A stretch of DNA of 60,911 nt, counting the filler. It is 7 parts of 7 records of this genome, joined end to end, with 100 filler letters (N's around TTAATTAATTAA, not from the genome) between each part and the next. Parts side by side here need not be neighbours in the genome. Positions count along the whole stretch, not along the records: positions 43,934 to 54,379 come from SRR31147125_22632; 6 more parts are not named here. The stretch is one strand, 5' to 3'. A program made the translations under genes and the position numbers. Positions 1,034-54,479 of this stretch are shown here, piece after piece. The stretch's first letter is position 1, and every line of letters begins with the position of its first letter. The notes under the pieces are model-generated. The model saw nothing but the letters and a program-made list of their open reading frames with translations. It had not been told where the DNA came from and made no database searches.

Positions 1034-3148
1034 TTATTCTTCTGGAGCTTCTTTACTCCCTTCGGATACCGATTTGAGATACTTGCTCATATGGGATCCA
1101 AATAAGGGTTTTTCATCAAGTGAATCAATCTTTTCTATCATTTCATCTATGTTGCTGATTAGCTTTTCAATTCCCGAAAAACCTTTCCCTTCATGAAAGC
1201 AACAAACAAATGCCTCGATGCCTTCTTCACTCTCAGTCAACTTTTCTATGTATTCTTGTACTTCTGCATATTTGTTTTCATTAAGTTGACCCCAACGAAA
1301 GAAAATACTAATTGGCTCGGGTTCGCTCGAAATGATATCTCTTGTGATGGAAACTTTTCTTAAAGTTGTTAACCACAGTTCCTTTGCCGCAATCAAATCA
1401 ACTGGGTTTATTGGAAAATTTTTCAACTCATGATCTTCATATTCTTGGAGACCCTTATAAATACCAGAATCCCAAATTCCACATTTAGATAGCAACCGAA
1501 CAAGAATATGCTCTGAAAGAGATAATGATTTTTCATTTGAAGACAATTCGTTGACTAAGGCTTTCCTATCTTCGTAGCCTTCTATGTCTTTAAGTATAGC
1601 GAGAATAAAATAAGCGATATCATCTGTTAGGTTCTTCCTATTCTCTTTATATGCAGTTTCAGATATGTCTAGTAATTCAAAAACAATTGACGATGGGTTG
1701 ATAATTTTAGATTTGGAAGTAAACCCTGAAGCATACTGAAGCCAACCAGGAAGCACACCTGCCTCAAAAGCATCAATTATTATCTCTCGCCTATCACTTT
1801 CAGATGACAAAAAATGTTTAATTTCATTACTTGAATATATGTATTTGGTTGGGCCACTATGCAGCAATTTAAGCAAAGATTCTTTTGTCGAAATTCTATT
1901 ATTGAATACTGCCTCTTCGTGAGAAGATGAAGACCATTCACCAAAAATAGAAGGGAAAATAAAACATAGAATTGATCTAATGTTTTTCACTTCAACTTGC
2001 TTATGTTTCGATAACAATTCTTTTATGAAAGGAGGCTCTTCTTTTTGATCATCTCTATCAGTAATGTCATCAAGCTGATCTTGGAAAATATAGTCACCTT
2101 CAATTACCGATGTTTTAAGGAATATCTCTGGATGGTTACGAATAGATTCTGATATGGGTGGATATTTTAATTCTAATGTCTCAAATGCTAATGTGTCAGC
2201 AAAATTTACTTCTTTTCGTGTGTTGTTTCCTGTTACTCTAAGTCGATTAACGAGCCGTATTACATCTCTCGGCGTAGACAAAGACCTTACAATTGCAGTT
2301 GTATCTAGCGCCTCACTTAAAATTTCTTTGTCCACAGATGACAACTCCATATTGATGTTTGTCAATAGTGATTTTATATGAAAATTTAGGAATGATTTTA
2401 AATGCCAATAGCCAATTCTTGGTAATGGGTATGATGCTTGGATTATTTTTTCTAAGTATCTACGACCATCATAAATATCATTATATGATAATGATTTTAT
2501 TACCGGTTCTGGTTCATAGGCCAACAAATACGAGACACGATCAAAATCACCGATAGCTTTGACGGCTTGAATAATTATACGAATTTCATCTGGGGGTAAG
2601 CGGTCAATATCATCAATAATGACAATTATTGGTTTCCCTAACTCGGTAATTGCTTTTTGCACTGCTTCTTTGCGGCCAGGCAGGTCAAGTTCGGCCATAC
2701 TAACAGCAGATTTAGTACTCTCGCTTACTGCAGTAATTGTTTTTTGGACTAACGTCCCCCAAGGTTCAACACCAGGTATAAGTTTGATTGGGGTTAAGAA
2801 TTGAGCAAAACTGAGAAGTTTTCCTGCCGCTTTACTTGCTATGTCGGTATTAAATGTTTGATTTATAGAGGAGGCGAGCTGAACTAAGAAACCCTCAACA
2901 ACACTCTCAAGTGAGCCAATGAGCCAAGGATTAAAATCTATGATAGCCGCATCAGTATTAATTTCTTTGATTTTTTCTTTAATTAAATTAATGGCTGAAG
3001 TCTTTCCCTCACCCCATTTACCTTCAACGGCGAGTATCAAGCTTGGCGATTTTTCGCTTAAAATTAAATACTCAGCAATTTGGCAGGCATAATTATTCCT
3101 TTCAAAAACATCTTCATCATTTTTCTTTATTGGGATTTCGCTGATCAT
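1034..3148 (-). CDS. KAP family P-loop NTPase
   Basis: Walker A GKWGEGKT, FNPW motif, Walker B IIDDIDR, YLEKIIQ and TPRDVIR motifs. Start reassigned to ATG 3148 (MISEIPI) because the longer ORF runs into the attC. Confidence 0.9.
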   Translation of the reverse strand: MISEIPIKKNDEDVFERNNYACQIAEYLILSEKSPSLILAVEGKWGEGKTSAINLIKEKIKEINTDAAIIDFNPWLIGSLESVVEGFLVQLASSINQTFNTDIASKAAGKLLSFAQFLTPIKLIPGVEPWGTLVQKTITAVSESTKSAVSMAELDLPGRKEAVQKAITELGKPIIVIIDDIDRLPPDEIRIIIQAVKAIGDFDRVSYLLAYEPEPVIKSLSYNDIYDGRRYLEKIIQASYPLPRIGYWHLKSFLNFHIKSLLTNINMELSSVDKEILSEALDTTAIVRSLSTPRDVIRLVNRLRVTGNNTRKEVNFADTLAFETLELKYPPISESIRNHPEIFLKTSVIEGDYIFQDQLDDITDRDDQKEEPPFIKELLSKHKQVEVKNIRSILCFIFPSIFGEWSSSSHEEAVFNNRISTKESLLKLLHSGPTKYIYSSNEIKHFLSSESDRREIIIDAFEAGVLPGWLQYASGFTSKSKIINPSSIVFELLDISETAYKENRKNLTDDIAYFILAILKDIEGYEDRKALVNELSSNEKSLSLSEHILVRLLSKCGIWDSGIYKGLQEYEDHELKNFPINPVDLIAAKELWLTTLRKVSITRDIISSEPEPISIFFRWGQLNENKYAEVQEYIEKLTESEEGIEAFVCCFHEGKGFSGIEKLISNIDEMIEKIDSLDEKPLFGSHMSKYLKSVSEGSKEAPEE

Positions 3149-3165
3149 ATTTGTTTTTGGTTTGT

Positions 3166-3228
3166 GCATATCGTTGAGTTGAGGGGCGCGCGGTTTTTTG
3201 CGCGTCCCTCTCAAACGATTGGTTATGT
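3166..3228 (-). mobile_element. attC site
   Basis: + strand GCATATC-GTTGAG-TTGAGGGGCGCGC-GGTTTTTT-GCGCGTCCCTCTCAA-ACGATTG-GTTATGT. Confidence 0.88.
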
Positions 3229-3735
3229 AAATTTCATTGTTTTACATTCAAAGTTCCATTGAGATCCTTGTGAATCAGACTTGAAATCAGCGTTCTACCA
3301 CCTTAAAATTACCGACTGGCGTACTTTCGTAGTGTAGTCTCTTGCTCTGTACGCACAAACCTCGGATTTCCATTCCCACCTGGCAGTCCAACCGAAAATG
3401 ATAGGCCGATAATGAGCGATGATTTGATATGTCTCTTTGGTATCTATAGCTTTTAGATCAATCTCAACATTGATATTGTCACCCGGGAATATTTTTTATC
3501 AGTGACTATTTTTTGTTCACTTATGCATCCCGATTGACCGAAACCGATTTGCATACGTTTTGGCTCTATTTTCAATTTTATTAGTTGGACGGTTCATTTG
3601 CTCTGGTTATGTATTTTAAGGGTATGTTTCTTTTTGTTCCCTTCCCTGTCGAAATGGACATAGACATATAAGCCTTTACCGAGCAGTGATAAAAGGAATC
3701 CAACTATCGGTATTGGAAACGTCATATCGGGCATT

Positions 3736-4292
3736 TTATTTTCTCCGAGACTTTTTCATTAGTTCTCGTGCCTTTTTCTGCCGCTCAACTAAGTTTTTAT
3801 ACGTTTTTCCCTTCCGGACATCTGCTATATTTTTGAAACCATATTTGTCATAATATTCTTTTATCGATCTGATATACAATTTGCAGTATTCAATTTCCTG
3901 TTTGTAGTTTTTCCCTTTCTTGAAAGAATTGCCACTCGCCGGAAGTAATACATATCCGGTTCCTTCTCTGCTTTTTCCATCTTTACTAATTCTGCTTGGC
4001 AACATCTTTTCATCATATCAATGTCATCTTTATGGGTCTTAGCGAACTCATGTGTTGTTTTCCCATCTACAAGGTTTTCCCTATTACATAGCTCACTGAT
4101 AACATCTTCGCTGCTAATGGGTCGCCCACTACTTTCTTCTAATTGTTCGGCTTTTTTCTTAAACCTTTTCTCTGCTTCAAGTGAAGCCTCTTTTTCACCC
4201 ATCTCCATTCGATATTTCCTTTGGATTTCAGCGATAACTTCATCTTCCGACGATTTAGGTTTTGGTTTAAACAACCAATCAAAAATCCCCAT
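3736..4292 (-). CDS. Cassette hypothetical protein, split by a 1-nt homopolymer indel near 3910 (about 185 aa joined)
   Basis: ORFs 3861-4292 and 3736-4005 join as ...RRVAILSRK|GKNYKQEIEYC... at GGGAAAAAC; GAGG RBS before ATG 4292. Confidence 0.65.
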
Positions 4293-4435
4293 GAAACGTC
4301 CTCAGGTTGAAAAAAGGTGGGTATGATACATTTGCAATCAATGTGCAACACACTTAATTATGAGCAGAATCTCCAGCAAAACAGGGAAACACTTTACGGA
4401 TCGAAAGGTAGCAAATCTTTGTTTTCCGTCTTTCT

Positions 4436-4500
4436 GCATAACGTACTGCTCACAGGTTGCCGGGTTGTTTCGGCAATCCTTGTGCAGCCGTTTGTTGGGA
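4436..4500 (-). mobile_element. attC site (downstream of caspase gene)
   Basis: + strand GCATAAC-GTACT-GCTCACAGGTTGCCG...CGGCAATCCTTGTGCAGC-CGTTT-GTTGGGA; 3 nt from the stop codon. Confidence 0.9.
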
Positions 4501-4503
4501 GCT

Positions 4504-5463
4504 TCATATTCTGTTGGTCGATGCGAGTCTCCAGTAGTAACGACCTGATGGTGTCAGTCTGCATGCTTTAGAGTTCATGGCGGCGTCATACATATGAGGA
4601 GCACCACTGGGAACAACAAGATGCACACGGCTAAGTTGTTGCAGTTCTTTGAATACACTGACGCTCGACGCATTGGCCACGGATGAGGTATACTCATATG
4701 TGGGATCAAGAGGTCTATCTTCCGCTGGGAGAGGAAACAATATTGGCAGCTTACGTAAGAGTGCCCGATCAATAGTTGGCTGACAGTGGCGAAGGGGAAC
4801 AAGTTGCGCAACATGCGACTTAAACAAGGGACGCTGATCCCACACTCCGAGTGCCGCTTCTACATAGGCATATATACTTGGCGCAGTTACAGCGCCAAGC
4901 ACGTCAGCAGCCCCACCAGACAATGCGTCCACCACAAGAGACGTAAATAATCCTCCACCGCCGTCTTCAACAGATGGTTGATCAGAGCGACTTGCTGTCA
5001 AAATCGAAACGCCTTCCCGAAGCAGTGCTTTAGAGTTATCTATTGCGGGAACAGCCCCAAGTTGCCCGGAAAAACAACAATCCAAAAGAATGATGACCTC
5101 ACGAGCATTGGAGTCGTTCGCCCATTTCAAGACATCTCCCATTGCCACACCCTCGTCATAATGCGTTGCATCTTGGGTGACGAGGTAACCATCAAGATTG
5201 TTCACAGTCCCGTGACCAGAGAAGTGAAATAACGCAATATCAGCCCTGATCTGGAAGAACTCATCAATTGCTTTTCGCAATGACGCCCTTGTGACTTTCG
5301 TCAATGCGCTACCAGCTGGTGCTGTCAACCGACGACATTGGAAATTGGGAGAACCGTCATGGTGTCTTGTCAGAATGTCGGATATTCGGATAGCATCCTT
5401 GGCGCAACCCTCTAAACTTCCGACAGAGTATTCATCAATACCTATGCAAAGTGCACCTCTCAT
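4504..5463 (-). CDS. Caspase-like (peptidase C14) protease with C-terminal extension; likely effector of a type IV Thoeris-like system
   Basis: ALCIGIDEY, catalytic His in HFSGHG, catalytic Cys in LLDCCFSG, ILTAS and GLFT motifs; GGAG RBS; 24 nt downstream of the TIR gene. Confidence 0.9.
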   Translation of the reverse strand: MRGALCIGIDEYSVGSLEGCAKDAIRISDILTRHHDGSPNFQCRRLTAPAGSALTKVTRASLRKAIDEFFQIRADIALFHFSGHGTVNNLDGYLVTQDATHYDEGVAMGDVLKWANDSNAREVIILLDCCFSGQLGAVPAIDNSKALLREGVSILTASRSDQPSVEDGGGGLFTSLVVDALSGGAADVLGAVTAPSIYAYVEAALGVWDQRPLFKSHVAQLVPLRHCQPTIDRALLRKLPILFPLPAEDRPLDPTYEYTSSVANASSVSVFKELQQLSRVHLVVPSGAPHMYDAAMNSKACRLTPSGRYYWRLASTNRI

Positions 5464-5487
5464 ATCGCTATCTCCTTTGCATTGGCA

Positions 5488-5877
5488 TTATCGTGTGCCG
5501 CTCACGAGCGCTTTCAAATTATCCCAGGTCCATTTGTAGATCTTGTCTGATCCCAGCGCGTTTGAAGGCTTAGTACAATTTTTGTCACTGCGCCCCCAAA
5601 GAAGAAAATAGGGCACGTGCTCTTCCTTTGCGATACTTAGTTCAGCACTCACTCCCGTGGCATTTTTTGTATATTCCCCGCAGATGACGATTACCACATC
5701 ACAACCCTTGATTCGTCTACGCGCGTGTTCTCGCCAATTCGAGGCGACAGCCTCCTTGATCGACATATCTACAATCTCGAATTCTGTGTCAGGATGCTTC
5801 GACTGCCCGATGAGAAGAGTTTTCAAATCTGCATCGTGGTCGAAGTCGAAACTTATAAATGCTCGTTTTTTTGCCAT
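5488..5877 (-). CDS. thsB: TIR-domain protein, ThsB/MTH538 (DUF1863)-like
   Basis: RAFISFDFDHD, VVIVICGEYT, candidate catalytic Glu in GVSAELSIAKE, C-terminal YKWTWDNL. Confidence 0.85.
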   Translation of the reverse strand: MAKKRAFISFDFDHDADLKTLLIGQSKHPDTEFEIVDMSIKEAVASNWREHARRRIKGCDVVIVICGEYTKNATGVSAELSIAKEEHVPYFLLWGRSDKNCTKPSNALGSDKIYKWTWDNLKALVSGTR

Positions 5878-7527: not shown

Positions 7528-7627
7528 NNNNNNNNNNNNNNNNNNNNNNNNNNNNNNNNNNNNNNNNNNNNTTAATTAATTAANNNNNNNNNNNNNNNNN
7601 NNNNNNNNNNNNNNNNNNNNNNNNNNN
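7528..7627. other. Artificial contig spacer
   Basis: N-run / TTAATTAATTAA (stops in all six frames) / N-run. Confidence 0.99.
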
Positions 7628-14271: not shown

Positions 14272-14870
14272 ATGCCAAGAGTTAAAGGTGGTACGACTAC
14301 TAGAAAACGTCGTAAAAAAATATTAAAGTTAGCCAAAGGTTATTTTGGTTCTAAACATGCATTATATCGTACAGCAAATGAACAGGTGATGCGTTCATTA
14401 GCATACGCTTATAGAGATCGTAAAAAAGAAAATCAGAATTTAGAAAATTATGGATTTCAAGAATTAATGCAGCTGCTAAATTAAATGGAATGAAATATTC
14501 TAAATTAATCCATGGTTTATCACTTGCACATGTTGAAGTCAACAGAAAAGTCTTAGCAGACTTAGCGGTTAACCAACCTGAAGATTTCACTGCATATTGC
14601 AATATCGCAAAAGATGCATTAAATGGTAATGTACCTGCTGTTACTGAAAACAAAGCAGTAGTTGCACCTAAAAAAGCAGCTAAAAAAGTTGAAGTTAAAG
14701 TAGAAGAAAAACCAGAAGAAATCGTTAAAGAAGAAGTTTTAGAAGAACCAACATCAGTTGATTTAGGATCTTTAACAGTTGCTGAGTTAAAAGCATTAGC
14801 AAAAGAAAAAGGTTTATCAGGTTATTCTAAACTTAAAAAAGCAGAACTTATTGCTGAACTATCTAAATAA
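14272..14870 (+). CDS. rplT: 50S ribosomal protein L20 with C-terminal Rho_N-like extension; apparent 1-nt deletion near 14425
   Basis: MPRVKGG...YAYRDRK; adding one A restores [33 protein letters not shown]; ends [30 protein letters not shown]. Confidence 0.93.
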
Positions 14871-17285: not shown

Positions 17286-17385
17286 NNNNNNNNNNNNNNN
17301 NNNNNNNNNNNNNNNNNNNNNNNNNNNNNTTAATTAATTAANNNNNNNNNNNNNNNNNNNNNNNNNNNNNNNNNNNNNNNNNNNN
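17286..17385. other. Artificial contig spacer
   Basis: N/TTAATTAATTAA/N. Confidence 0.99.
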
Positions 17386-26426: not shown

Positions 26427-26526
26427 NNNNNNNNNNNNNNNNNNNNNNNNNNNNNNNNNNNNNNNNNNNNTTAATTAATTAANNNNNNNNNNNNNNNNNN
26501 NNNNNNNNNNNNNNNNNNNNNNNNNN
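26427..26526. other. Artificial contig spacer
   Basis: N/TTAATTAATTAA/N. Confidence 0.99.
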
Positions 26527-32497: not shown

Positions 32498-32597
32498 NNN
32501 NNNNNNNNNNNNNNNNNNNNNNNNNNNNNNNNNNNNNNNNNTTAATTAATTAANNNNNNNNNNNNNNNNNNNNNNNNNNNNNNNNNNNNNNNNNNNN
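32498..32597. other. Artificial contig spacer
   Basis: N/TTAATTAATTAA/N. Confidence 0.99.
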
Positions 32598-36178: not shown

Positions 36179-37315
36179 ATGAATAGAAGTAAATTAAGGT
36201 TGACAAATATAAATCTTAGTGGTTTTAAATCAATAAATTCCATTGGGCAAAATATACCTATCGGGGATATTACAATTTTATTGGGAGCAAACGGGGCAGG
36301 GAAAAGTAATTTAATTTCTTTTTTTCAAATGCTCAATTTTATGACAACTGGTGCTTTGCAAACCTACTTGGGGCAAAGTGGTTCAGCTGACTCGTTGTTA
36401 TATTTTGGTTCAAAAATAACAACAAGATTAAATGCAGAAATTACGTTTTCAGATTCCAAATCAATGGATAAGTATAATTTTAGCTTGGCCCATGCTGCAG
36501 GAGATACTATGATTTTTACAGAGGAAACTCTTCTTTGGCAATCTCATAATAATCCCAGACCATTTGAAATTTCACTTGATCCCGGTGTTAAAGAATCTGG
36601 ACTTTATGAGTATTGTAAAAAGAGAGAAGCTAAAACAGCTCGTATTATTTTTAATCTGCTAAAAGACTGCCAGGTATTTCAGTTCCATGATACGTCAAAA
36701 GAAGCTAAGATTCGAAATAGTGGCTATATCAACGATGATAGTTTTCTTAGAAGTAATGGAGGGAACCTTGCAGCCTTTCTATATTCAATAAAAAAACAAA
36801 GGAATGGGGAAAAATATTATGATAGGATTGTAAGATACATTAGAATGGCAATGCCGCAGTTCAATGATTTTGTGCTAATGCCATCTGTAAGAAATGATAA
36901 TTACATAATGCTAAATTGGATTGAGAATGATTCAGACTATTTGTTCGGGCCACATCAAATCTCAGATGGCTCGCTAAGATTCATGGCCTTAACAACATTG
37001 CTCCTTCAACCACCAGCATCACTCCCCTCTGTTATAATCCTAGATGAACCAGAACTTGGATTACATCCATCTGCAATATCTTTATTAGCAGGAATGGTAA
37101 GAACAGCGAGTCAAAATTGCCAGATTTTACTTGCAACGCAGTCTACAAGGTTGATTGATGAATTTGATTCTCAAAATATTGTAATAGTTGAACGAAATGA
37201 GGAAGAAAGATGTAGTGTATTTAAAAAATTGAATGACGAAAATTTAAAAGACTGGCTGGAGCGATATAGCATGAGTGAACTTTGGGAAAAAAATGTAATT
37301 GGAGGTAGGCCATGA
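36179..37315 (+). CDS. ABC-class (AAA_21-like) ATPase
   Basis: GFKSI, GANGAGKSN, ISDGSLRF, ILDEPELGLHP, ATQS, LWEKNVIGGRP. Confidence 0.9.
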   Translation: MNRSKLRLTNINLSGFKSINSIGQNIPIGDITILLGANGAGKSNLISFFQMLNFMTTGALQTYLGQSGSADSLLYFGSKITTRLNAEITFSDSKSMDKYNFSLAHAAGDTMIFTEETLLWQSHNNPRPFEISLDPGVKESGLYEYCKKREAKTARIIFNLLKDCQVFQFHDTSKEAKIRNSGYINDDSFLRSNGGNLAAFLYSIKKQRNGEKYYDRIVRYIRMAMPQFNDFVLMPSVRNDNYIMLNWIENDSDYLFGPHQISDGSLRFMALTTLLLQPPASLPSVIILDEPELGLHPSAISLLAGMVRTASQNCQILLATQSTRLIDEFDSQNIVIVERNEEERCSVFKKLNDENLKDWLERYSMSELWEKNVIGGRP

Positions 37316-37998
37316 AAAAGTTCACAAGATTAAATATCACTGCAGAAGGTCAGACTGAAGAAAGATTTGTCAAGCAAACGCTTTCAATTCACCTTGGTAA
37401 TTATAACATTTCAACAGATGTTAGATGTGTTTTAACTAGTAAAGACAAGCAGAAATGTTATAGAGGAGGATTGATTAGCTACCAGAAAGCTAAAAGTGAT
37501 ATATTAACATGGTTAAAGGAAGATAATGATCCGAATGTCAGATTTACTTCAATGTTCGATTTGTACGCTCTTCCAAACGACTTTCCTAAATTTGAAGAAT
37601 CCAAGAAAATTAATGATGCATATAAGCGTGTCGAGTTTCTTGAATCTGCCTTTGCAGAAGACATAAATGATTACAGGTTCATACCTTACATACAGTTATA
37701 TGAATTTGAATCGCTTTTGTTGTCAAAACCAGAAGAACTGGAAATTGAATACTTTGACCATATTGAGGCAATAGAAAAATTAAAGACTTTGCTAAGTCAA
37801 GTTGGAAATCCTGAATTAATAAACGACAATCCCGAAACTGCCCCTTCAAAGCGGATAATCAAACTTATACCCGAATATGAATGCAATAAAGTTAGTGCAG
37901 GTGCTACTATCGCTGGAATAATTGGAATAGACTGGCTAAAAAGTAACTGTAAACACTTTAACGAATGGATTATGAAATTGGAAAATATAATCATCTGA
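37312..37998 (+). CDS. DUF4276 family (TOPRIM-like) protein
   Basis: EGQTEERFV, MFDLYALP, PYIQLYEFE, NPELIND...APSKR, CKHFNEW; ATGA overlap with the ATPase. Confidence 0.85.
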   Translation: MKKFTRLNITAEGQTEERFVKQTLSIHLGNYNISTDVRCVLTSKDKQKCYRGGLISYQKAKSDILTWLKEDNDPNVRFTSMFDLYALPNDFPKFEESKKINDAYKRVEFLESAFAEDINDYRFIPYIQLYEFESLLLSKPEELEIEYFDHIEAIEKLKTLLSQVGNPELINDNPETAPSKRIIKLIPEYECNKVSAGATIAGIIGIDWLKSNCKHFNEWIMKLENIII

Positions 37999-42990: not shown

Positions 42991-43551
42991 ATGTTAAATA
43001 GGGATCAAAATAATAAAAGAATGCTTGATTCTGTAATTTGGAAATCATTTCTGAGAGGAGATGAAGAAGCATTCAAAGTTATTTATAAAACCCACGTACA
43101 ACAACTATTTGAGTATGGATTATATTTTACAAATGATAGGGATTTAATACTGGATTTAATTCATGATGTTTTTATAAACCTACACAAGTACCGAAAAAAA
43201 TTACGTGAAACTGATAACATCAGGCTATACCTCTTAAAATCATTAAAACATTTGCTCCTAAAGGAGCTTAAGAAAATACATAAAGTTTCACATTTGGAAG
43301 AATCTGGATATCCAACCAATTTTGAGAAATCTTCGGAAGACATTATTATAGAAAGAGACATTAAAGCCCAAAGCAAAAAACAAATACAGAAGGCACTTTC
43401 GTTGTTAAGTGACAGACAGCGTGAAGCTATATTACTTAAATTTTATTTTGAATACAACTACAATGAAATCAGCGAGATAATGAATGTAAATTATCAGTCG
43501 GCGCGTAATCTTGTTCACCGTAGTATTGAAAAATTAAGAGAAAGTTTTTAA
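42991..43551 (+). CDS. ECF sigma-70 factor
   Basis: GDEEAFKVIY, DLIHDVF, LSDRQREAILLKF, YNEISEIMNVNYQSARN. Confidence 0.92.
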   Translation: MLNRDQNNKRMLDSVIWKSFLRGDEEAFKVIYKTHVQQLFEYGLYFTNDRDLILDLIHDVFINLHKYRKKLRETDNIRLYLLKSLKHLLLKELKKIHKVSHLEESGYPTNFEKSSEDIIIERDIKAQSKKQIQKALSLLSDRQREAILLKFYFEYNYNEISEIMNVNYQSARNLVHRSIEKLRESF

Positions 43552-43833: not shown

Positions 43834-43933
43834 NNNNNNNNNNNNNNNNNNNNNNNNNNNNNNNNNNNNNNNNNNNNTTAATTAATTAANNNNNNNNNNN
43901 NNNNNNNNNNNNNNNNNNNNNNNNNNNNNNNNN
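43834..43933. other. Artificial contig spacer
   Basis: N/TTAATTAATTAA/N. Confidence 0.99.
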
Positions 43934-43946
43934 AAAAAAGCCTTGG

Positions 43947-44711
43947 GTGAAATTTATTATTAAGGATTTACCAATGTATCCTGCTAATCCAAATTCTACT
44001 TGCAGGATAGGTTACGTACCTTATAATAATTGTGTGCAGGATAGGTATTTTTATATTGACAAGTCACGAAAATATGAAACGTTAGCAGCTGGCGGTATCA
44101 GTACTCAGATTTATTGGAATTATAATAAGGAAACGCTTCCTGAAGGTTGGCAGGGAGCTGTAAAACAATCCTACATTGATTCCCAAACACAGCAGAATAA
44201 GCAAAATACCATGGTTGCACTTTTGGCTTTCACATTCTCTCGGTATCGAAAGCGTGGATTTTCAGATAAGATATTATCAAAAATGTGTTTAACAGCTCAG
44301 GAAAGAAATTATAAATATTTGCTGGCTCCTGCTCTTCTGCCCTCTAAGTTTAAAAGAGAAAATGTTCGGGCAAGTATGAATGACATCATTAAAATGAAGC
44401 GTGATGATGTTGAATATTATGATTTTTGGCTGAGAACCCATACCCGTAAAGGAGCAGAAATTATTGGTTCTTGTGAATCTTCACACAGATTTATTTTAAG
44501 CCTGAAAGATTTTAATGAATTTGTAAGTTCTGACGCGATAACAAATACAGGGGAACATTGTGTTCGATTGGATAAAGATCGTGTGTTGAGCCGGAACGGG
44601 AAAAATATGTGGCAGCTGGTTTATGCTGATATCAAAAGATCATATGTGACCTTTAACTGGGGATGTGTGTGGGTTGTATATGATCTTGAAAAACTCCATT
44701 TTAGCGTTTAA
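43947..44711 (+). CDS. GNAT-like acyltransferase domain, probably the C-terminal part of a longer gene
   Basis: LPEGWQG, NTMVALL...YRKRGFS, LLAPA, DFWLRTHTRKGAEI; starts at the contig edge. Confidence 0.65.
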   Translation: MKFIIKDLPMYPANPNSTCRIGYVPYNNCVQDRYFYIDKSRKYETLAAGGISTQIYWNYNKETLPEGWQGAVKQSYIDSQTQQNKQNTMVALLAFTFSRYRKRGFSDKILSKMCLTAQERNYKYLLAPALLPSKFKRENVRASMNDIIKMKRDDVEYYDFWLRTHTRKGAEIIGSCESSHRFILSLKDFNEFVSSDAITNTGEHCVRLDKDRVLSRNGKNMWQLVYADIKRSYVTFNWGCVWVVYDLEKLHFSV

Positions 44712-44894: not shown

Positions 44895-47800
44895 TTGGAA
44901 AAGATGGAAGGGCAAAATCAATTTACTGGCTTTGGAATGATAGAAAATTTAATACCATATGGCCTGGAGGTAGAAACTTTTGAAAGTGAGCTAATCTTCA
45001 AATTAGAGGAGGGTGAGGTAAGCAAAGAAGTAATAAATTTGTTTCGAAATTCACATACTGATCTAAAAAAGCTCTTCAAAGACAATAATACTAACAATGC
45101 TAAAATTTTCCCTGCTTCATATAATCAAAATGCATTGTGGTTTCACCAGGAAATGAATCCTGAAAATTGTTCTTACAATATTTCTCTTGTCTTAAAATTT
45201 AAAGGCGATGTTTCTATTAAAGAAATAACTAACTCTCTAATACAAGTCTCAAAAAATCATATATTGCTGAGGTCGAGGCTCCTTGACTTAAAGAATCCTA
45301 AAACACCTTTATGCATTGTTGCCTTTGAAGAGAGCAATCCTTATACTGAAGAAATTGAAATTGAGACGCTGGATGAAGCTGAAATTAAAAAGATATTTTA
45401 CAACAAATATCAAATTCCATTTGACCTTAGATCAGATAAACTATTGAAGACATATGTTGCAAAAAATAATCTTTTCACATATGTATTTTTTAATATCCAC
45501 CATATAATATCAGATGCCTGGTCGGATAAAATTTTAACAAAAGAATTTCTTGATAATTTAAATAGTAGTAATGAGGAAATAAACACGCAAGAATCCACCG
45601 AGGATTTTAATGATTTTGTTTACAATCAATATAAATACCTTTCAGGTTCAGATGGAACTTCTGATTTAAAATTTTGGATTGATAAATTCAAGAATCGTGA
45701 TATAGAATTAAAATTGCCCTTTGATTATGAACGAAAACCAATTTATTCGCATGAAGGGGCAACAATTAATTTCCAAATAAAAGATGAATTATATAAGAGA
45801 TTATTAAAAATAGGTGAAACCCTGAATGCATTTCCAAACCATACGATGTATTCTCTATTTGATATTTTTTTGGCAAAGGTTTCAGGTCAGGCTGATTACA
45901 ATATTGGTATTACGGCTGCAAACCGGATGAGTAGTATTTCAAAAAATATCCTGGGATACTTTGTAAATACTTTTCCTGTAGAATCTGCTGCAAAAGAAAG
46001 TAAATCCTTTATTCAAATCATTGAAGAAAATAAAAGTAAATTCAATCAAATTGCTAAACATCAGGGAATCCCTTTTTCCAGGCTCATTGAGCAATTAAAT
46101 TTTAAACGCGATTTATCCAGGCCTATATTGTTCAGGTTCTGTATAATTTCATGAATCAGTACAGCCTTGGATATGCTCACCATTTCATAGATCCTTTAGA
46201 GAATCAATTCAAGAAATTTGGAAAATTTGAAATTGCCTCATTAAAATTAAATGATCAGGAAGGCCAGTTTGACTTAACTTTTGAAGTAGTCCAATACAAA
46301 AATAGATTTGAATGCTACTTTAAATACAATACAGCTCTTTTTAATAAGAATACAGTTGAACAATTCGTTTCGCAATTTTTGAAATTGGCAGAGACAGTTA
46401 CTAATGAGCCCGATTCCGAAAACTGGGGTAACTCACTACAAAAACAACAGCAAGTTAACATTACCGGAACTTTCACAACAGAACCCATAGATAAGGCACT
46501 TCAGTTTTGGCTCAACAAAATAAACTTACCTTCAAAAATAAACTTCGTTGGATTCAATCAAATATTCCAACAGCTACTGAACCCAGGCAGTGAGTTTAAC
46601 ACCATTCCGGATTCAATAAATATTGTTTTAATCAGGCTTGAAGACCTATTTAAAAGGGATGAAACTTTAGACAATAATTATTTAAGAATATATAAAGAAC
46701 TGAAAGAGTCTTTGTTGTCCCATACACAAGCCAATACTAGTAGCAAAATAATTGTAACATTCTGCCCACATTCTGAGCATTATATAGGGGATGAAACATT
46801 TATAAAAATCAGCAATCAGTTGGAGGATGAGATGTATACCCTATCTCAAAGCTTAAATAACTTATTTGTTATAAAGACAAATGATTTTACCGGTGCTTAT
46901 AATCTTGCCAATTATTACGAACCAATTGGTGAAGTTCAGGGAAACATACCTTACAAAAACAATTTCTTTGCATGTGCAGCAACATTAATTGCACGAATAA
47001 TGTATTCCATTTATAATTCACCGTTTAAAGCTATCGTTTTAGACTGTGATAATACATTATGGAAAGGTGTTGTTGGTGAGGATGGGGTAAGTGGTATTGA
47101 GATTGGAGAACAGGAAGAAAAGCTTCATAAATTCCTTATTAAACAATACGAGGCAGGTATTCTCTTGTGTCTTTGCAGTAAAAATAACGAAAAAGATGTT
47201 TGGGAAGTTTTCGATAAGCATGAGCAAATGTTGCTAAAAAAGAAGCACATTTCATTTTCCCGAATTAACTGGGAACCTAAGTCAAAGAATATCATTGAAC
47301 TTTCGAACGAAATTAATGTAGGCCTGGATAGTTTTATTTTTATTGATGACAATCCTATTGAATGTGAAGAGGTAAAAACACATATTCCATCGGTTTTTAC
47401 AATTCAAAAAAGAACCGACACCAATAACATTGATTATATTCTAAACTCTTGGGTATTCGACAGAAATAGAATAACCAAAGAGGATAAGAAAAGAGCCTTA
47501 ATGTATAAGGATGAAGCAAAAAGAACAAGTTTAAAATCGAAATTTAAGTCCTATGCGGAGTTCATTGACGAATTACATATTAAAATTGAGTTTAATTCGG
47601 TAAGCACAAATGAGATAACCCGCATTTCTCAACTTAGTTATCGAACAAATCAATTTAATTTTACCACAATTCGAAGAACTGAAAGTGAAATTACGGAACT
47701 CGCAAATAATTCTGAATACAAGGTTCTATATGTTCAACTTGAAGATAAATATGGAGATTACGGAATAATTGGTGCTATCATTTGTTTTGAGAGCGACGAC

Positions 47801-50800
47801 TCACTGCTTGTTGATACTTTTTTACTAAGTTGTCGTGCCCTTGGGAAAGGTGTGGAACATGCAATGCTTGCTTACCTTGGAAAGCAAGCTAAAGCAATAA
47901 GTAAGAAAAATCTTGCGATACATTTTTCCAAAACAGAAAAAAATAGTGTCGCACAAAAATTTCTGGATACAAATTTCTTAAATTATAAACTTGAAGTATC
48001 CGAAGGCTATGTTTATCAAATCCCTACCGACCTTGCAATCAACTTCAAATTTCATCCGGCTTCTGTTCAAATTCAGAATGAAGGTTCTAATAGTAAACAG
48101 AATATTGAAATAAAACCCAACATCGTTAGCCGAAATAATTTATTCAACGACATTATACAAAACTACTCCAATATAGATTCCATTGTTGAAAAAGTATATG
48201 GGGCAGACAAATTAAATTCACGTATTCATAAACAGAAAAAAGGGCTGGAAAAAAATCAAATTGAAACTGAAATTTTAGGGATATGGCGAGAGGTTCTGGA
48301 TAACAGGAATATTAAATTAACTGACAATTTCTTTGATGTTGGCGGTAAATCAATTTTAATCCCAAATATAGTTATTCGCATAAAAAATGAACTTGATTTG
48401 GAGTTAGACATTGTAGATATCTTCCAATATCCAAACGTAAAAAAACTATCGGAATACTTATCACATTCAACTAATGAATCCCAAGACAATCCTATTGATA
48501 ATCAAAAGAAAAGCACATCCAATAAGGCCAGTGATGGTGTTAATGAATACATTGATAACGATATTGCAATAATAGGATTAACAGGAAGATTCCCGGGAGC
48601 TGACAATATTGATGAATTTTGGCAGCTAATAAAAAATGGCAAAGAGACAATTACACACTATTCAAGGGAAGAACTTGAAAAAAAAGGAGTAGATAAAGAG
48701 CTGCTCGATAATCCAAACTATGTTTATGCAATTGGGAGTATGCCATCAGCAGATAAATTTGATGCTGCATTTTTTGGATTTACACCCAGGGAAGCTGATT
48801 TTATGGATCCGCAGCATCGTGTATTCCTTGAATCATGTCATGAAGCGCTTGAAGTTGCAGGTTATTCTTCTGATAATTATAATGGTTCTGTCGGCATATT
48901 TGCCGGGAGTGGGCCAGATAATTATATTTTAAAAAATTTATTTCAACATGATGATGCCATGAGAAGCATCGGTGAATTCCAGACCATTATAAATAATGGA
49001 AAAGATTTCATCACAACACATGCATCCTATAAATTAAATCTCAATGGACCCAGTTTAAATATACAAACAGCCTGTTCAACTTCGCTTGTTGCTGTGCATT
49101 ATGCATGTAACAGTCTTAGAAACAGTGAATCAGACATCGCACTTGCAGGAGGGGTATTCATTCATACACCCAGGGAAATTGGCTATATGTATGAATCTGG
49201 AGGAATTCTTTCTCCGAAAGGTCAGTGTCGGCCTTTTGATTCACAAGCCGATGGTACCCTTTTTGGAGAAGGTGTTGGCATTGTTGTTTTGAAAAGATAC
49301 AAAGATGCCATTCGGGATAATGATACAATTTGGGGGCTCATTAAAGGCTCCGCAGTCAATAACGATGGTTCTGCAAAAGTTGGCTATATGGCTCCCGGTA
49401 TTAATGGTCAATCAAAAGTTATTTCCCGGGCACAGAAATTTGCAGGAATTAAACCTTCTGATATTTCGTATATTGAAGCACATGGTACCGGTACAAACCT
49501 GGGAGATCCGGTAGAAATGAAAGCTTTAACAAATGTATTCAGGGAAGAAACACAGAATAAAAACTTTTGTGCTATTGGTTCAGTTAAAGCAAATATTGGA
49601 CACCTGGATGCTGCAGCCGGAGTCGCAGGTTTAATAAAAATAACTTTAGCCCTAAAACATAAACAAATACCCTCAAGCATTAATTTTAAAGAACCCAATC
49701 CTGAACTACAAATTCATAATAGTCCTTTTTATATTAATACGGGAGTAAAAGAATGGAAAACAAAAGATAGTAAACCACGGAATGCAGGAGTCAGTTCTTT
49801 TGGAATAGGAGGAACAAATGCACATTGTATAATTCAGGAAGCTCCGGAAACCCAAAGCGAACCGAGTAACAAAAAATATCACATTATACCGGTCTCTGCA
49901 AAATCTGAAGCAGCTCTAAATGATATAAAAACCAACCTGTACATTTACTTGACAAAGAATAACTGTAGCCTTCCCGATCTGTCATTCACTTTGATGGCTG
50001 GACGAAAACGCTATAATTACAGAAGTACAATTATTTGTAACTCTCAAGACGATGCCATAGAAAGAATAGTTAGTGCACCTGTAAAAAAGAATTTATTTAC
50101 TAGCCCCAAAATTGTTTTTCTATTTACCGGTCAGGGAAGTCAATATAACAGGATGACCGAAGGACTTTATAATGAATTTCCTGTATTCAAGGAATGTTTG
50201 GATAAGGCTTTTGGCATCGCTAAATCCAGCTTTGGATTAGATCTTGAGCAAATTATTTTTTCTGATAACTACAAAACAGAAATCAATAAGACAGAATATA
50301 CTCAACCGGCATTGTTTGCGGTACAATACGGCATGGCTAAACTTTTGAATAGCTTTGGTATTGATTCAGAGGCCCTTATTGGGCATAGTATTGGTGAAAT
50401 AACCGCCGCCTGTATATCTGGCTTATTTTCTTTTGAAGATGCACTTAAGCTGGTTATTGTACGGGGCAGGTTAATGCAGGCACAAAAAACGGGGGCAATG
50501 CTCAGCATTCAATTACCGGCAGAAAAAGTGAAACAAATCCTACCTGACAATATAGATTTTGCACTTCAAAATGCCCCAAACTTTAGTGTCGTTTCAGGAG
50601 AAATTGAAGATATAGATAGTTTTCATAAGGAGTTAGAGGCTAAATTCCCCGGGATATTGCTCTCTAAACTAAAAACATCGCATGCTTTCCACTCCAGAAT
50701 GATGAATCCAGCCTTAGACGAATTCAGAAAAGAAATAGCTGATATTTCTTTCAAAACCATTGATATACCCTTTGTTTCAAATACAACAGGTACATGGGCG

Positions 50801-52497
50801 GACATAGAAACTGTCGGCAATGTCGATTATTGGGTGAACCATATTCGATCAACTGTAAATTTTGAAGACGGTGTAAATACCATACTTAAAGACAAAAACA
50901 CAATGTTTATTGAGGTTGGTCCCGGAACCTCGTTGACCACACTACTAACACAATTTGAAAAAGACAATCAAAAGATTGTTTCAATACCCACAATTCGTCA
51001 CCCAAGAAAAAAAATTGACGATGTTCATATTTTCTTTGATGCATTATCTGATTTATGGAATTATGGTGCTGACAGGCTTTTTGATAACTGGTACGAAGGA
51101 GAAAAGAGAAAGAGAATTCCACTGCCAACCTATCCGTTTCAAAGGAAAAGATATTGGATTGATCCGCTTGTACCGTTCAGCTATCATGTAAAAACAAAAA
51201 ATAGTTACTCCAATTTGCTTCAAAGTACTGATGTAAGTCTTTCTGAAGAAACAAGTCAAACAAACGAGATTTTATCTACACTGCACCAAAGGCCGGAATT
51301 AACATCCTCGTATGTTCCTCCATCAAATGAAATCGAAGAAAAGTTAGTTCAAATATGGCAGGACTTGTTAGGGATTGATTCAATTGGCATTGATGATGAC
51401 TTTTTTGAATTGGGAGGCCACTCTCTGCTCGCAAGCAGCCTGTTAACACAAATTAAAAATGAAATAGGGGCAACAATAAAGTTTAAGGATTTGAGATCCG
51501 ATTCTATCTCTGTAAAACAGATTGCTAAACTCATCGCTAATGATCCTGAAGATCCGGTCCGGATTGAGCACAACTCCAAATTTAAGATAGTTGTTAAAAA
51601 GACCAATGAAATAACCGAAAATGAATGGTCTGTTTATGTAGAAGAATTTAATAGTAATTTCAATCGGGAATATTCGAAGGATGATTTTGTAAGAAAATAT
51701 ACAGAAACACCTTTGGGCTTTTCGTTTCATGCTTTTGTATATGTCGGTAATAATCTTGTAGGAAGCCAAAGCTATATTGTAGAGTTATTAGATTATAAAA
51801 CAGAAGTAATTAGAATGGCATGTGGTTGCGATCTCTTTATATTGGAAGAATATAGGAAAAGTTTTACCCTTTTGAATGATTTATGGGAAGCGACTGATTC
51901 CATTTTATTAGAGCATGATGTTAAAGCATATATTAGTAATCCATTGCCGGATTTGTTAGCGTATAGTGAAGCGGCTCAAACCGATTTTCAGTTAATATCG
52001 CATTTATCCACCTATGTGCTTCCATTAACGTTCAGAGTAATACATCCAAAATTGGGATTTCTTGATTTGTTGTACAGGCCAATACTTAAAATTGTGCTTA
52101 CTGTCAAAAGTTGGAATAAAACTCCCATACATAAAGAGGAGAAACTGTTTAAGGCACATGAGTATTATTCCCCTTACAACTATAAAACTTCTGGGAACAG
52201 GTTAATGAACTTAAATTTTCCTGGTTGTGGAGTAAAATGACACATTTGAAGATTATTATTATAAATGATAATTTTAAAAGCAAGGGAGACCTTTATAAGG
52301 CTTCAAAATATTTAATCAGAAAACATGGCATGAAGGCAAAGGCTCTTACATTTATTACTACAAACAGACTAACAATACCATTCAAGCACTTTCACACACA
52401 TGAACTTTTTATGGGTAAGATCTTGTCGGATGATATTAAGAGCAAAGAGTTTTTTGAAATAAAAAATTGGGAGTTTAGCAGAGGATTTTTCGATTAG
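44895..52497 (+). CDS. Hybrid NRPS/PKS megasynthase (docking-C-FkbH-ACP-KS-AT-ACP-GNAT-like), split by apparent frameshifts near 46133 and 52185
   Basis: C: HHIISDA, GYFVNT, RDLSRPILF|QVLYNF; FkbH: LDCDNTLWKG, FIDDNP, RTNQFN, LLSCR; ACPs GGKSI and GGHSL; KS: TACSTS, HGTGT, GHLDAAAG; AT: GQGSQ, GHSIG, HAFHS. Confidence 0.88.
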
Positions 52498-52502
52498 AAA
52501 CT

Positions 52503-53272
52503 ATGAAAGTTATAATAAATGCTGATGATTTAGGTTATTCGTCAGATGTAAATAGGGCAATAGCTCAAGCTTTAAAGCAAGGCTTAGTTTCGTCAACATC
52601 TATGTTGGCAAATATGCCGGGATTTGATGAAGCTGTAACTTTGGCTAAAAGTCAAGTCTTCCTTAATCGGATTGGTATTCATTTAAATTTGTTTGAAGGA
52701 AAACCTCTAACTAAAGAGATGCAGGAATGTAGTCTGTTTTGCAATGAATACGGGAATTACAAGGGAAGAAAGGATAAAAACGGAATCTTTCAGGGAAAGA
52801 AGAAAGAATTTTTGATCCTTTACTCATTGATTCCAACATTATTTTCAACGAATTGTCAGCTCAAATTGAGAAAGTTTTGAATGCGGGTATCGTACCCACC
52901 CATTTGGATTCTCATGGACAACTTCATACTAATTATTTTATTGGTCGTATATTTATCAAATTAGCAAAAAAGTATAATATACCATCCATTCGAATAAATA
53001 GTAATTTGCGCAAGAAACGAAATGTATTTTCAGAAATGGAAATAATCTTATATAATTTAAGACTAAAGCGACATGGAATAAAGTGTGTTAATTATATCGG
53101 AACAATATCGGAGATTGCGTCGAACCTGCATAGATTAAAGGGAACTGTAGAAGTTATTGCGCATCCGATATATAAAAATACAACTATAATTGATTCTGAA
53201 TTTCAAGATGAACTATCTTATCTGTTGAAACAATTTGAAGAAAAAATAAAAATAAGTTATGCTGAATTGTAA
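52503..53272 (+). CDS. ChbG/YdjC family carbohydrate deacetylase (frameshift near 52800)
   Basis: IINADDLG, GIHLNL, then ELSAQIEK...PTHLDSH, EVIAHP in the shifted frame. Confidence 0.88.
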
Positions 53273-53331
53273 TTTGATGTTTCAAAGCGTAGAGTTTTAT
53301 TGGATGTCCCAAACATTAAAATAAATTATTA

Positions 53332-54275
53332 ATGAAAAAAACAATTCGTTATCTATTATATTATCTTCCTATTACAGTGAAGAAAGGATAACAATATGTT
53401 ATAATAAAATAAGTCAACTCTTAGAGTCCGAACAAATTCCTTTTGAGTTTATTGTAATTGATGATGGCTCAAAAGATGACTCCTATAAAATTGCACAGGA
53501 ACTTGAACAATTGCACGAAAATGTAAAAGCATTTCAACTGAGTAAAAATTATACGCAGCATTATGGAGCATTTGCCGGATTATCGGTTTGCAATGGAGCT
53601 TGCGCTACACTAATTGATGATGATGAACAACAACCATATGGTACAATTGTGGAAATGTACCGTTTGTGGGAACAGGGAAATAAAGTTGTAATTCCATATC
53701 GAGATTCCCGGGCAGATCCGTGGAGAAGTAAAATTTTAGCTAATTTATTTTATGCCATAATGAATAGATTCTCCGATATTTCATTTCCTAACGGCGGAGT
53801 TGATAGTTTTTTTATCGATAGAGAATTAATTGATATTATAAATGAACGCATTCACCCAATAAACACTGCAACAATGATTGAGGTTTTAAGGTTAGGCTTT
53901 GAACCTTATTATTTGGGGTATTCAAGAGTGCTTGGTTTAAATGGTAAATCGTCACGTTGGACATTTAAGAAAAAACTCAAATTAGCTAAAGATATCTTTA
54001 TTTCATCGTCGTCTTTTCCTATTAAGTTTATTACTTATTTGGGAGTTTTTTTTTCATTGTTCTCGATAGTTATAATGATATTGTACATATATGTAAAATT
54101 ATATGGCAACGAGATGTTTTGGGGAGTGGCAGTTCCAGGCTGGACTTCGATAATATTATTTGTTACTTTCTTTGGTGGCCTTATCATGTTTTCATTAGGT
54201 GTAATTGCAGAATATATCTGGAGAATTTATGAAGAGGTAAAAAACAGGCCGGGATATATCATTAAGAAAAAATAA
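53332..54275 (+). CDS. GT2 glycosyltransferase (GtrB/ArnC-like); frameshift in A-run after the start
   Basis: LSIILSSYYSEE, IVIDDGSKD, IDDDEQQP, two C-terminal TM helices, PGWTS, LGVIAEYIWRIYEEVKNRP. Confidence 0.88.
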
Positions 54276-54379: not shown

Positions 54380-54479
54380 NNNNNNNNNNNNNNNNNNNNN
54401 NNNNNNNNNNNNNNNNNNNNNNNTTAATTAATTAANNNNNNNNNNNNNNNNNNNNNNNNNNNNNNNNNNNNNNNNNNNN
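54380..54479. other. Artificial contig spacer
   Basis: N/TTAATTAATTAA/N. Confidence 0.99.

Follow-up and report, generated by a model that had tools for sequence, protein, structure and literature searches.

A hybrid polyketide megasynthase ending in a tandem GNAT domain beside envelope-glycan genes: a possible route to acylated amino sugars

Introduction

How does an assembly line dispose of its acyl chain when it carries no recognizable thioesterase (TE) domain, ends in a GNAT fold and is encoded beside genes of glycan biosynthesis? This question is raised by a gene at 44895-52497 of the window analyzed here, a stretch of DNA of 60.9 kb that is a pseudomolecule of seven draft contigs and not one piece of a genome. 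The gene encodes a megasynthase with the order condensation (C) domain, FkbH-type domain, acyl carrier protein (ACP1), ketosynthase (KS), acyltransferase (AT), second carrier (ACP2) and tandem GNAT, and is followed on the same contig (43934-54379; 10,446 bp, no strand assigned) by genes for a YdjC-family sugar deacetylase and a GtrB/ArnC-type family 2 glycosyltransferase (GT2). In our reading, which we regard as moderately probable, the megasynthase transfers a beta-ketoacyl chain primed by glycerate to an amino sugar from which the N-acetyl group has been removed, so that a glycan or glycolipid is N-acylated and no free metabolite is released.

Domain organization of the megasynthase

In the deposited sequence the megasynthase is split into three open reading frames (ORFs) on the + strand (ORF1, 44895-46154; ORF2, 46151-52240; and a third at 52225-52497). 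These are collinear with intact homologs of 2516-2525 aa; residues 1-400, 379-2429, and 2422-2521 of the homolog P0001 correspond to frames 1, 3, and 2, respectively. Six homologs from a collection of 5.8 billion proteins (P0001-P0004, P0006, and P0007) share 63-71% identity with ORF2 at 100% coverage. After correction of two assembly indels (~46132 and ~52190), the gene (44895-52497, + strand) encodes a protein of 2534 aa.

All domains were found on the + strand. The C domain (45102-46420; PF00668, E 1.3e-58 over ORF1 residues 70-414, with its tail at ORF2 residues 24-90) is interrupted by the assembly indel at ~46132, and contains the active-site sequence HHIISDA at 45498 (ORF1 residue 202) and thus the HHxxxD motif of the family. 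It is followed, at 47027-47968, by an FkbH-type glyceryl-loading HAD domain that scored 309.2 bits against a cut-off of 146.65 with TIGR01686 (ORF2 residues 293-606). This domain carries DCDNTLW at 47042 (ORF2 residue 298; the HAD motif DxDxT) and SCR at 47828, the Cys of which we take to be the acyl-enzyme Cys. By score and motif it is a member of the FkbH family, and loading of a phosphoglycerate onto the carrier, with its dephosphorylation, is predicted. ACP1 (approximate bounds 48269-48460), one of two PP-binding stretches recognized by Pfam, was placed via residues 1119-1182 of P0003 and has a GGKS motif with the Ser attachment site at 48341. The KS (48557-49687; PF00109, E 1.7e-67; PF02801, E 1e-41) has an intact Cys-His-His triad in the motifs TACSTS, EAHGTGT, and NIGH (ORF2 residues 973, 1109, and 1148), and the AT (50114-50998; PF00698, E 2.7e-51) contains GHSIGE and HAFH, the latter being a mark of malonyl-specific ATs. 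ACP2 (51338-51532; PF00550, ORF2 residues 1730-1794) has GGHS at 51413. No adenylation (A), ketoreductase (KR), dehydratase (DH), or TE domain of the megasynthase was matched by Pfam or NCBIfam models.

The KS triad, the GHSxG motif of the AT, and the Ser sites of the carriers are those of a type I modular polyketide synthase (PKS) or a hybrid of nonribosomal peptide synthetase (NRPS) and PKS, and the domain order C-FkbH-T (T, carrier) of the ester-forming modules of the vioprolide/corramycin type is present. Sequence searches of the PDB with P0001 and with the C domain returned generic PKS/NRPS matches that do not settle the subtype of the C domain. An AMP-binding domain, as in fatty acyl-AMP ligases (FAAL), was matched by Pfam and NCBIfam neither in the megasynthase nor on the contig, which ends 1 kb upstream, and a donor encoded elsewhere is possible. 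An original prediction made from the sequence of the window had proposed a protein of about 2500 aa on joining of the frames, with the order C-FkbH-ACP-KS-AT-ACP-GNAT, the KS triad and HAFH intact and A, KR, DH, and TE domains absent. The corrected ORF, the Pfam and NCBIfam matches, the located motifs and the structure model described below agree with it throughout, and both ACPs proved to be intact as well.

The C-terminal tandem GNAT domain

The last ~310 aa of the megasynthase (51548-52497, + strand), which are interrupted by the assembly indel at ~52190, were assigned to a tandem GNAT domain of the N-myristoyltransferase/Eis-like type by means of phmmer relatives, an AlphaFold2 model, Foldseek, and VIA-align. 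The modeled sequence was the intact, 68% identical domain of the homologous locus L014 (L014:15392-16339), which gave a pLDDT of 89.9 and a pTM of 0.86. Foldseek matched this model to Eis-like tandem GNATs (E 2.7e-11, probability 1.00) and also to N-myristoyltransferases and a tandem GNAT of the clavulanate pathway, and VIA-align gave a Z of 17.1 to N-myristoyltransferase over 270-280 residues and of 16.3-16.6 to Eis-like proteins. According to the model, the C-terminal domain is thus a tandem GNAT with two lobes. The original prediction had named a GNAT-like terminus and made its interpretation depend on that fold, which the structural comparisons returned.

When the sequence encoded by 51548-52210 was compared by phmmer with 1.84 billion cluster representatives, 159 matches at E <= 1e-3 were obtained, nearly all of them free-standing proteins of ~300-330 aa, with best E values down to 2.5e-50 and 32-44% identity in the closest matches (P0121-P0123). 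The Pfam cut-off of Acetyltransf_9 (PF13527) was passed by 5 of 28 stand-alone relatives, most others being weak matches, and a family profile built from 71 sequences matched AAC(2') acetyltransferases at E 6.5e-4. None of the eight family members scanned matched an NCBIfam model. In N-myristoyltransferase, this arrangement of lobes serves to attach an acyl chain to a primary amine. An origin of the domain as a duplicate of the FemAB-like GNAT encoded downstream in L014 was considered and rejected, as the two have no BLASTP similarity (E 0.75).

Fused homologs

Besides the window, at least seven 90%-identity clusters of GNAT-ended megasynthases were found (P0001, P0002, P0003, P0004, P0006, P0007, and the partial P0009). 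P0003, of 2525 aa, is the megasynthase of L014, which lies on the chromosome of a metagenome-assembled genome (MAG) of Draconibacterium. There, the gene order is a fusion of methyltransferase and ACP (MT-ACP; L014:7547-8737), the megasynthase, an intact YdjC gene, two FdtA-type isomerases, a FemAB-like GNAT, and a DegT aminotransferase, continuing with an unknown gene, Wzx, two GT2, and one GT1. Judged by these genes, L014 is an O-antigen/capsule-type locus with predicted genes for 3-amino-3,6-dideoxyhexose. In both contexts read, the YdjC gene directly follows that of the megasynthase. The original prediction had required homologs to co-occur with YdjC and GT2; YdjC is indeed kept in L014, but by tblastn the GT2 is not.

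The fused form is rare, with one occurrence among 335 genomes of the family of G001 and one among 401 genomes sampled from its order. A separate scan of genome contigs, which relied on just two peptide patterns, may have overlooked fused forms. Its N-terminal C domain falls into at least three types, found in the window, P0001, and P0005; in L014, P0002, P0006, and P0007; and in P0004, respectively, while the remainder of the protein is 57-74% identical. This suggests that different lineages may use different acyl donors. In other MAGs of Bacteroidales, the same C-FkbH-ACP-KS-AT-ACP core (44-56% identity) continues into C-A-PCP(-TE) modules (PCP, peptidyl carrier protein), an architecture seen in P0008, P0013, L001, L003, L004, L006, and L010, and the GNAT-ended enzymes therefore look like an initiation unit of secondary metabolism in which the NRPS part was swapped for a glycan-type N-acyltransferase. 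An MT-ACP fusion gene (~396 aa, with weak BioC-like matches) lies directly upstream of the core genes in L003, L004, L012, L013, L014, and L015, and may supply the donor of the C domain.

Stand-alone relatives in polysaccharide loci

The gene contexts of stand-alone relatives of the GNAT domain were read in ten loci, four from metagenomes (L030, L032, L033, and L034) and six from species-representative genomes (L048-L053). The metagenome loci derive from a profile search with the GNAT alignment that returned nine loci, none of which had the fused form; the four with at least 8 kb were read, whereas L031 and L035-L038 (1.1-3.3 kb) were left out, as was one of six stand-alone matches of one genome search (G224, on a 1.9-kb contig). 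All ten are polysaccharide loci with GT1/GT4 glycosyltransferases, Bac_transf or WecG enzymes, UDP-glucose dehydrogenase, DegT, and PglD-like genes. The cassette around the GNAT contains a FabG/KR-type SDR in each of the ten and a Polysacc_deac_1/DUF3473 deacetylase beside or near the GNAT in nine, the contig of the tenth stopping 0.8 kb past the GNAT. KASIII occurs in six loci and an AMP-ligase in three (either of them in nine), a small ACP was recognized in four, and a PIG-L deacetylase is additionally present in two.

Across these ten contexts, the GNAT family thus recurs in company with acyl synthesis on an ACP and with a de-N-acetylase for sugars. The recurrent logic of the cassette, as predicted from its genes, is to build an acyl chain on a carrier, to de-N-acetylate an amino sugar, and to re-acylate it. 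The pair of megasynthase and YdjC resembles a variant of this logic in which the parts are fused into a type I PKS, and YdjC looks like a third, unrelated deacetylase family in a slot that is otherwise filled by DUF3473-type or PIG-L enzymes. The original prediction had proposed a sugar amine exposed by YdjC as a possible acceptor. This putative transfer gains support from the stand-alone relatives, which lie beside a sugar deacetylase in nine of the ten loci and beside enzymes for ACP-type acyl building.

In one of the loci (L053:619-4341), genes for an AMP-binding protein, a LuxE-like acyl-protein synthetase, and a LuxC-like acyl-CoA reductase precede the stand-alone GNAT, an arrangement reminiscent of the tetronate genes of ACP/LuxE type in the rfb locus of Vibrio cholerae O1.

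Reading frames and assembly errors

The deposited sequence contains four frameshifts within 9.4 kb: the megasynthase gene has two, the YdjC and GT2 genes have one each. For a frame check, contigs of the public sequencing run X1, in which 97% of the sampled words of the stretch are found, were aligned to the window contig, which they tile and overrun at both ends. Over 10.4 kb, X1 differs from the contig only by one-base insertions behind 46132, 52190, 52802, and 53334 and by two substitutions (52192-52193), and application of the insertions in silico results in ORFs of 2534 aa (44895-52497), 256 aa (52503-53272), and 314 aa (53332-54275). X1 is possibly the source sample of the window itself, and the comparison thus demonstrates consensus error and does not represent an independent strain; next to none of the stretch is present in a second public run, X2. 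The essential gene rplT (ribosomal protein L20; 14269-14870), on another contig, likewise carries a frameshift, located at an A6 run near 14420-14430, which supports the same conclusion. All four frameshifts are assembly errors, and the genes are to be treated as intact. The two frameshifts recorded in the original prediction both lie in the megasynthase; those in YdjC and GT2 come in addition.

The second part of rplT encodes a C-terminal extension that matches Rho_N/SAP-like domains and looks unusual for L20.

Neighboring genes on the contig

The true linkage of the megasynthase is restricted to YdjC, GT2, and one upstream ORF on the 10.4-kb contig. The YdjC-family sugar deacetylase gene (52503-53272, + strand; PF04794; 256 aa after correction of the indel at ~52802) starts 5 nt past the stop codon of the megasynthase. 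Its two halves score 84.2 and 55.7 bits with PF04794 against a cut-off of 29.7, and the L014 ortholog 151.7 bits; with the HpnK model, the N-terminal half of the window protein reaches 59 bits and the L014 protein 92 bits, both under the cut-off of 232.6. The gene for the GtrB/ArnC-type polyprenyl-phosphate GT2 follows (53332-54275, + strand; 314 aa after correction of the indel at 53334). Its nearest relatives of solved structure are GtrB sll0501 (E 4.3e-32) and ArnC (E 8.3e-16), matched over residues 4-252. With 115 bits against 500 for PgfS and 65 against 529 for ArnC in NCBIfam, it is a member of no curated equivalog; the query used was without the first ~60 residues. Both genes had been recognized in the original prediction, including the distance of 5 nt; PF04794 confirms the former, and the nearest relatives of solved structure are in line with the latter. 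The contig ends ~100 nt past GT2 and contains no GT-C transferase or flippase gene.

NaxD, a member of the YdjC superfamily, deacetylates undecaprenyl-phosphate-GalNAc (PMC11279074). Membership of this family and the adjacent GtrB/ArnC-type GT2 point to YdjC as a candidate NaxD-type deacetylase of undecaprenyl-phosphate-HexNAc.

The upstream ORF (43947-44711, + strand; 254 aa) begins 13 nt from the edge of the contig. It had no Pfam or NCBIfam match and no tblastn match in loci L001-L029. Its ESM Atlas features are similar (0.95) to clusters in which 15-16% of the members carry PF00583, which is a lead only; the ORF may be of the GNAT type and encode a further acyltransferase of the cluster.

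Proposed route of the acyl chain

From the domain order, motifs, GNAT fold, reading frames, and gene contexts we infer the following chemical steps and the identity of the acceptor. FkbH would load D-glycerate from phosphoglycerate onto ACP1, and the N-terminal C domain would join an acyl donor provided in trans to the glyceryl unit, presumably by an ester bond in analogy to vioprolide. The AT would load malonate on ACP2, and the KS would carry out one extension. Since there is no KR, the product would be (O-acyl)-3-oxo-4,5-dihydroxypentanoyl-S-ACP2. Finally, the tandem GNAT would release this chain by N-acylating an amino sugar that YdjC has deacetylated beforehand. In the window contig, the acceptor would most simply be a hexosamine that the neighboring GtrB/ArnC-type GT2 attaches to polyprenyl phosphate, because GtrB and ArnC act on polyprenyl phosphate and NaxD deacetylates undecaprenyl-phosphate-GalNAc.

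Several observations weigh against this route. The C-terminal ~310 aa have no Pfam match even at E 10 and no NCBIfam match. N-myristoyltransferase, Eis, and AAC(2') use CoA thioesters, and an ACP-bound donor is suggested only by the fusion and the neighboring ACP genes. The contig, ending 1 kb upstream of the megasynthase, holds no recognized acyl donor for the C domain, which shares only 29% identity with its L014 counterpart; in L014 the upstream gene is the MT-ACP fusion. The context of the fused form was read in two cases only, the window and L014. Moreover, tblastn found no counterpart of the GtrB-type GT2 in L014, where the acceptor might be 3-amino-3,6-dideoxyhexose. Finally, the beta-keto-gamma-hydroxy thioester could leave the enzyme by self-lactonization. 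N-acyl amino acid synthases transfer their chain to a soluble amine, and in the same manner the GNAT could pass the chain to an amino acid or polyamine; such a transfer, or a tetronate-like lactonization, would yield a free small molecule, with YdjC and GT2 tailoring this metabolite or being unrelated to it. The wider relatives of the core closest to the megasynthase, with their C-A-PCP(-TE) continuation, are typical of secondary metabolism, enzymes structurally close to the GNAT end have peptides and aminoglycosides as acyl acceptors, and the rarity of the fused form in family and order is as expected for a natural-product cluster. However, the ten stand-alone GNAT relatives examined all lie in polysaccharide loci, nine of them with a sugar deacetylase, YdjC abuts the megasynthase in the window as well as in L014, and the latter is embedded in an O-antigen-type locus with Wzx. 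A free product thus appears unlikely to us.

The final product could also be a membrane glycolipid and not a decorated polymer, if GT2 put HexNAc on a lipid, YdjC deacetylated it, and the GNAT N-acylated the lipid-bound glucosamine. In hopanoid tailoring, the HpnI/HpnK pair adds HexNAc to a lipid and then deacetylates it, and the sub-threshold HpnK scores of both YdjC proteins, the lipid-phosphate-acting type of the GT2, and the lack of a GT-C transferase or flippase on the contig would be in line with such a product. Yet a contig that breaks off so shortly behind GT2 makes the missing downstream genes uninformative, and Wzx as well as several glycosyltransferases of a repeat-unit pathway are encoded in L014; we consider this possibility quite unlikely. 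That the locus is a decaying pseudogene array with four real frameshifts, as their density in the deposited sequence might suggest, is highly improbable: insertions in X1 at exactly the four sites restore all three ORFs, rplT shows the same kind of defect, and all catalytic motifs are intact. This reading was rejected on the basis of the X1 comparison and the ORFs restored in silico. N-acylation of a de-N-acetylated amino sugar by the megasynthase is accordingly the reading that we retain, at the strength given above.

Other features and source of the window

The seven contigs are joined by six spacers of the form N44-TTAATTAATTAA-N44 (7528-7627, 17286-17385, 26427-26526, 32498-32597, 43834-43933, and 54380-54479), one of which was inspected directly. 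This form is the usual all-frame-stop spacer with which draft contigs are strung into a pseudomolecule. Because these artificial linkers, which bound the cluster contig on both sides, separate the contigs, no gene before 43934 or after 54379 is a neighbor of the cluster. Linkage to the ECF sigma factor at 42991 and to OTC, PurA, EtfBA, and acyl-CoA dehydrogenase (54568 onward) was rejected, as all of these lie on other contigs. Given its indel errors and its make-up as a pseudomolecule, the window should be trusted neither for gene adjacency across linkers nor for apparent pseudogenes.

A T9SS sorting domain and DUF4835 are present elsewhere in the window, and the nearest homologs are from MAGs of Bacteroidales, Saccharicrinis, and Draconibacterium. 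Both lines of evidence point to a Bacteroidota organism as the source, and the host seems to be a marine-type Bacteroidales bacterium.

Genes for a KAP-family P-loop NTPase (1034-3214), a caspase-like Peptidase_C14 (4504-5463), and a ThsB-like TIR protein (5488-5877) are clustered on the - strand, and the region 1034-5877 looks like a defense island. An AAA_21 ATPase gene (36179-37315) is followed by a gene for a DUF4276 protein (37312-37998), and this gene pair (36179-37998) is typical of defense-type systems.

Significance

Antigenicity and phage recognition are influenced by unusual N-acyl groups of O-antigens and capsules, but most of the enzymes that attach these groups are unknown. If the proposed route is true, it would represent a new logic of chain release, in which an N-myristoyltransferase-like domain transfers the chain to a sugar as an amide, and a case of secondary-metabolite machinery recruited for envelope building. 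For the ~160 clusters of stand-alone relatives, which lack a Pfam or NCBIfam model, a testable function would also emerge, that of ACP-dependent amino-sugar N-acyltransferases acting with a de-N-acetylase. A broader hypothesis, which we advance tentatively and with less than even confidence, is that a type I PKS/NRPS has been recruited as a dedicated envelope tailoring enzyme that hands its glycerate-primed beta-ketoacyl group, via the N-myristoyltransferase-like tandem GNAT behind the last ACP, directly to a lipid-linked hexosamine freed by YdjC, and that the uncurated GNAT family represents a general, hitherto undescribed route in many bacteria by which surface amino sugars are de-N-acetylated and then re-N-acylated from an ACP. 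Such a general route would explain how unusual N-acyl groups arrive on surface polysaccharides.

Comparison with known systems

The C-FkbH-carrier module is already known; what is new is the off-loading by a GNAT end and the connection to glycans. The original prediction did not recognize the architecture from any characterized cluster. This does not hold for the C-FkbH-carrier module, which vioprolide, corramycin, and cystomanamide share; within the literature searched, it does hold for the GNAT end with its glycan link. A tandem GNAT as off-loading end of a PKS, or such a PKS in glycan loci, was not found in the open-access literature, with MIBiG/antiSMASH and most subscription papers being outside this search. 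The same literature returned no papers on FkbH in Bacteroidetes/Bacteroidota and no description of the stand-alone ACP/KASIII/KR/GNAT/deacetylase cassette, including searches for DUF3473 and for 3-hydroxybutanoyl with ACP and O-antigen.

In vioprolide and corramycin, FAAL-ACP-C-FkbH-T loads glycerate, derived from a phosphoglycerate; the C domain of vioprolide esterifies it with a fatty acyl group, and the cystomanamide assembly line also has a C-FkbH-T module (PMC8949500; PMC10099666). In these modules, FkbH takes the place of the A domain between C and carrier as in the megasynthase, but they follow FAAL-ACP and feed long NRPS lines that lead to free peptides. In the megasynthase no FAAL was seen, and a single KS-AT-ACP extension and a tandem GNAT follow, beside glycan genes. 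Upstream of the module lie an MT-ACP gene in L014 and a GNAT-like ORF in the window instead of FAAL-ACP.

FlmF2 and ArnD have roles in routes to lipid-linked amino sugars. The systems FlmF2/NaxD of Francisella and Acinetobacter and ArnC/ArnD likewise pair a polyprenyl-phosphate GT2 with a deacylase that frees the amine of a sugar on the lipid carrier (for NaxD, PMC11279074). In these, however, the free amine is the end point (cationic lipid A), whereas the PKS-fused GNAT of the window would re-acylate it, and the window contig encodes no ArnT- or FlmK-type transferase.

CurA-type GNAT loading domains are single N-terminal GNATs that decarboxylate malonyl-CoA and acetylate ACP. They share with the megasynthase a GNAT-fold domain that is fused into a type I PKS beside an ACP, but are placed before the first ACP, whereas the GNAT of the window is tandem, C-terminal, follows ACP2, and has relatives in glycan loci. 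The tandem GNATs of N-myristoyltransferase and Eis have the same two-lobe fold over 270-280 residues (Z 16.3-17.1), and N-myristoyltransferase transfers an acyl chain, not acetyl, to a primary amine; both are nevertheless free-standing, only 8-14% identical, and dependent on CoA thioesters, while the window domain is fused behind an ACP. The stand-alone cassettes have the same GNAT family and the same logic of carrier-bound acyl chain and de-N-acetylase as the megasynthase. They use discrete type II fatty acid synthase-like enzymes with KR and CE4/DUF3473 or PIG-L deacetylases, in place of which the window has a fused type I PKS with FkbH priming, no KR, and YdjC.

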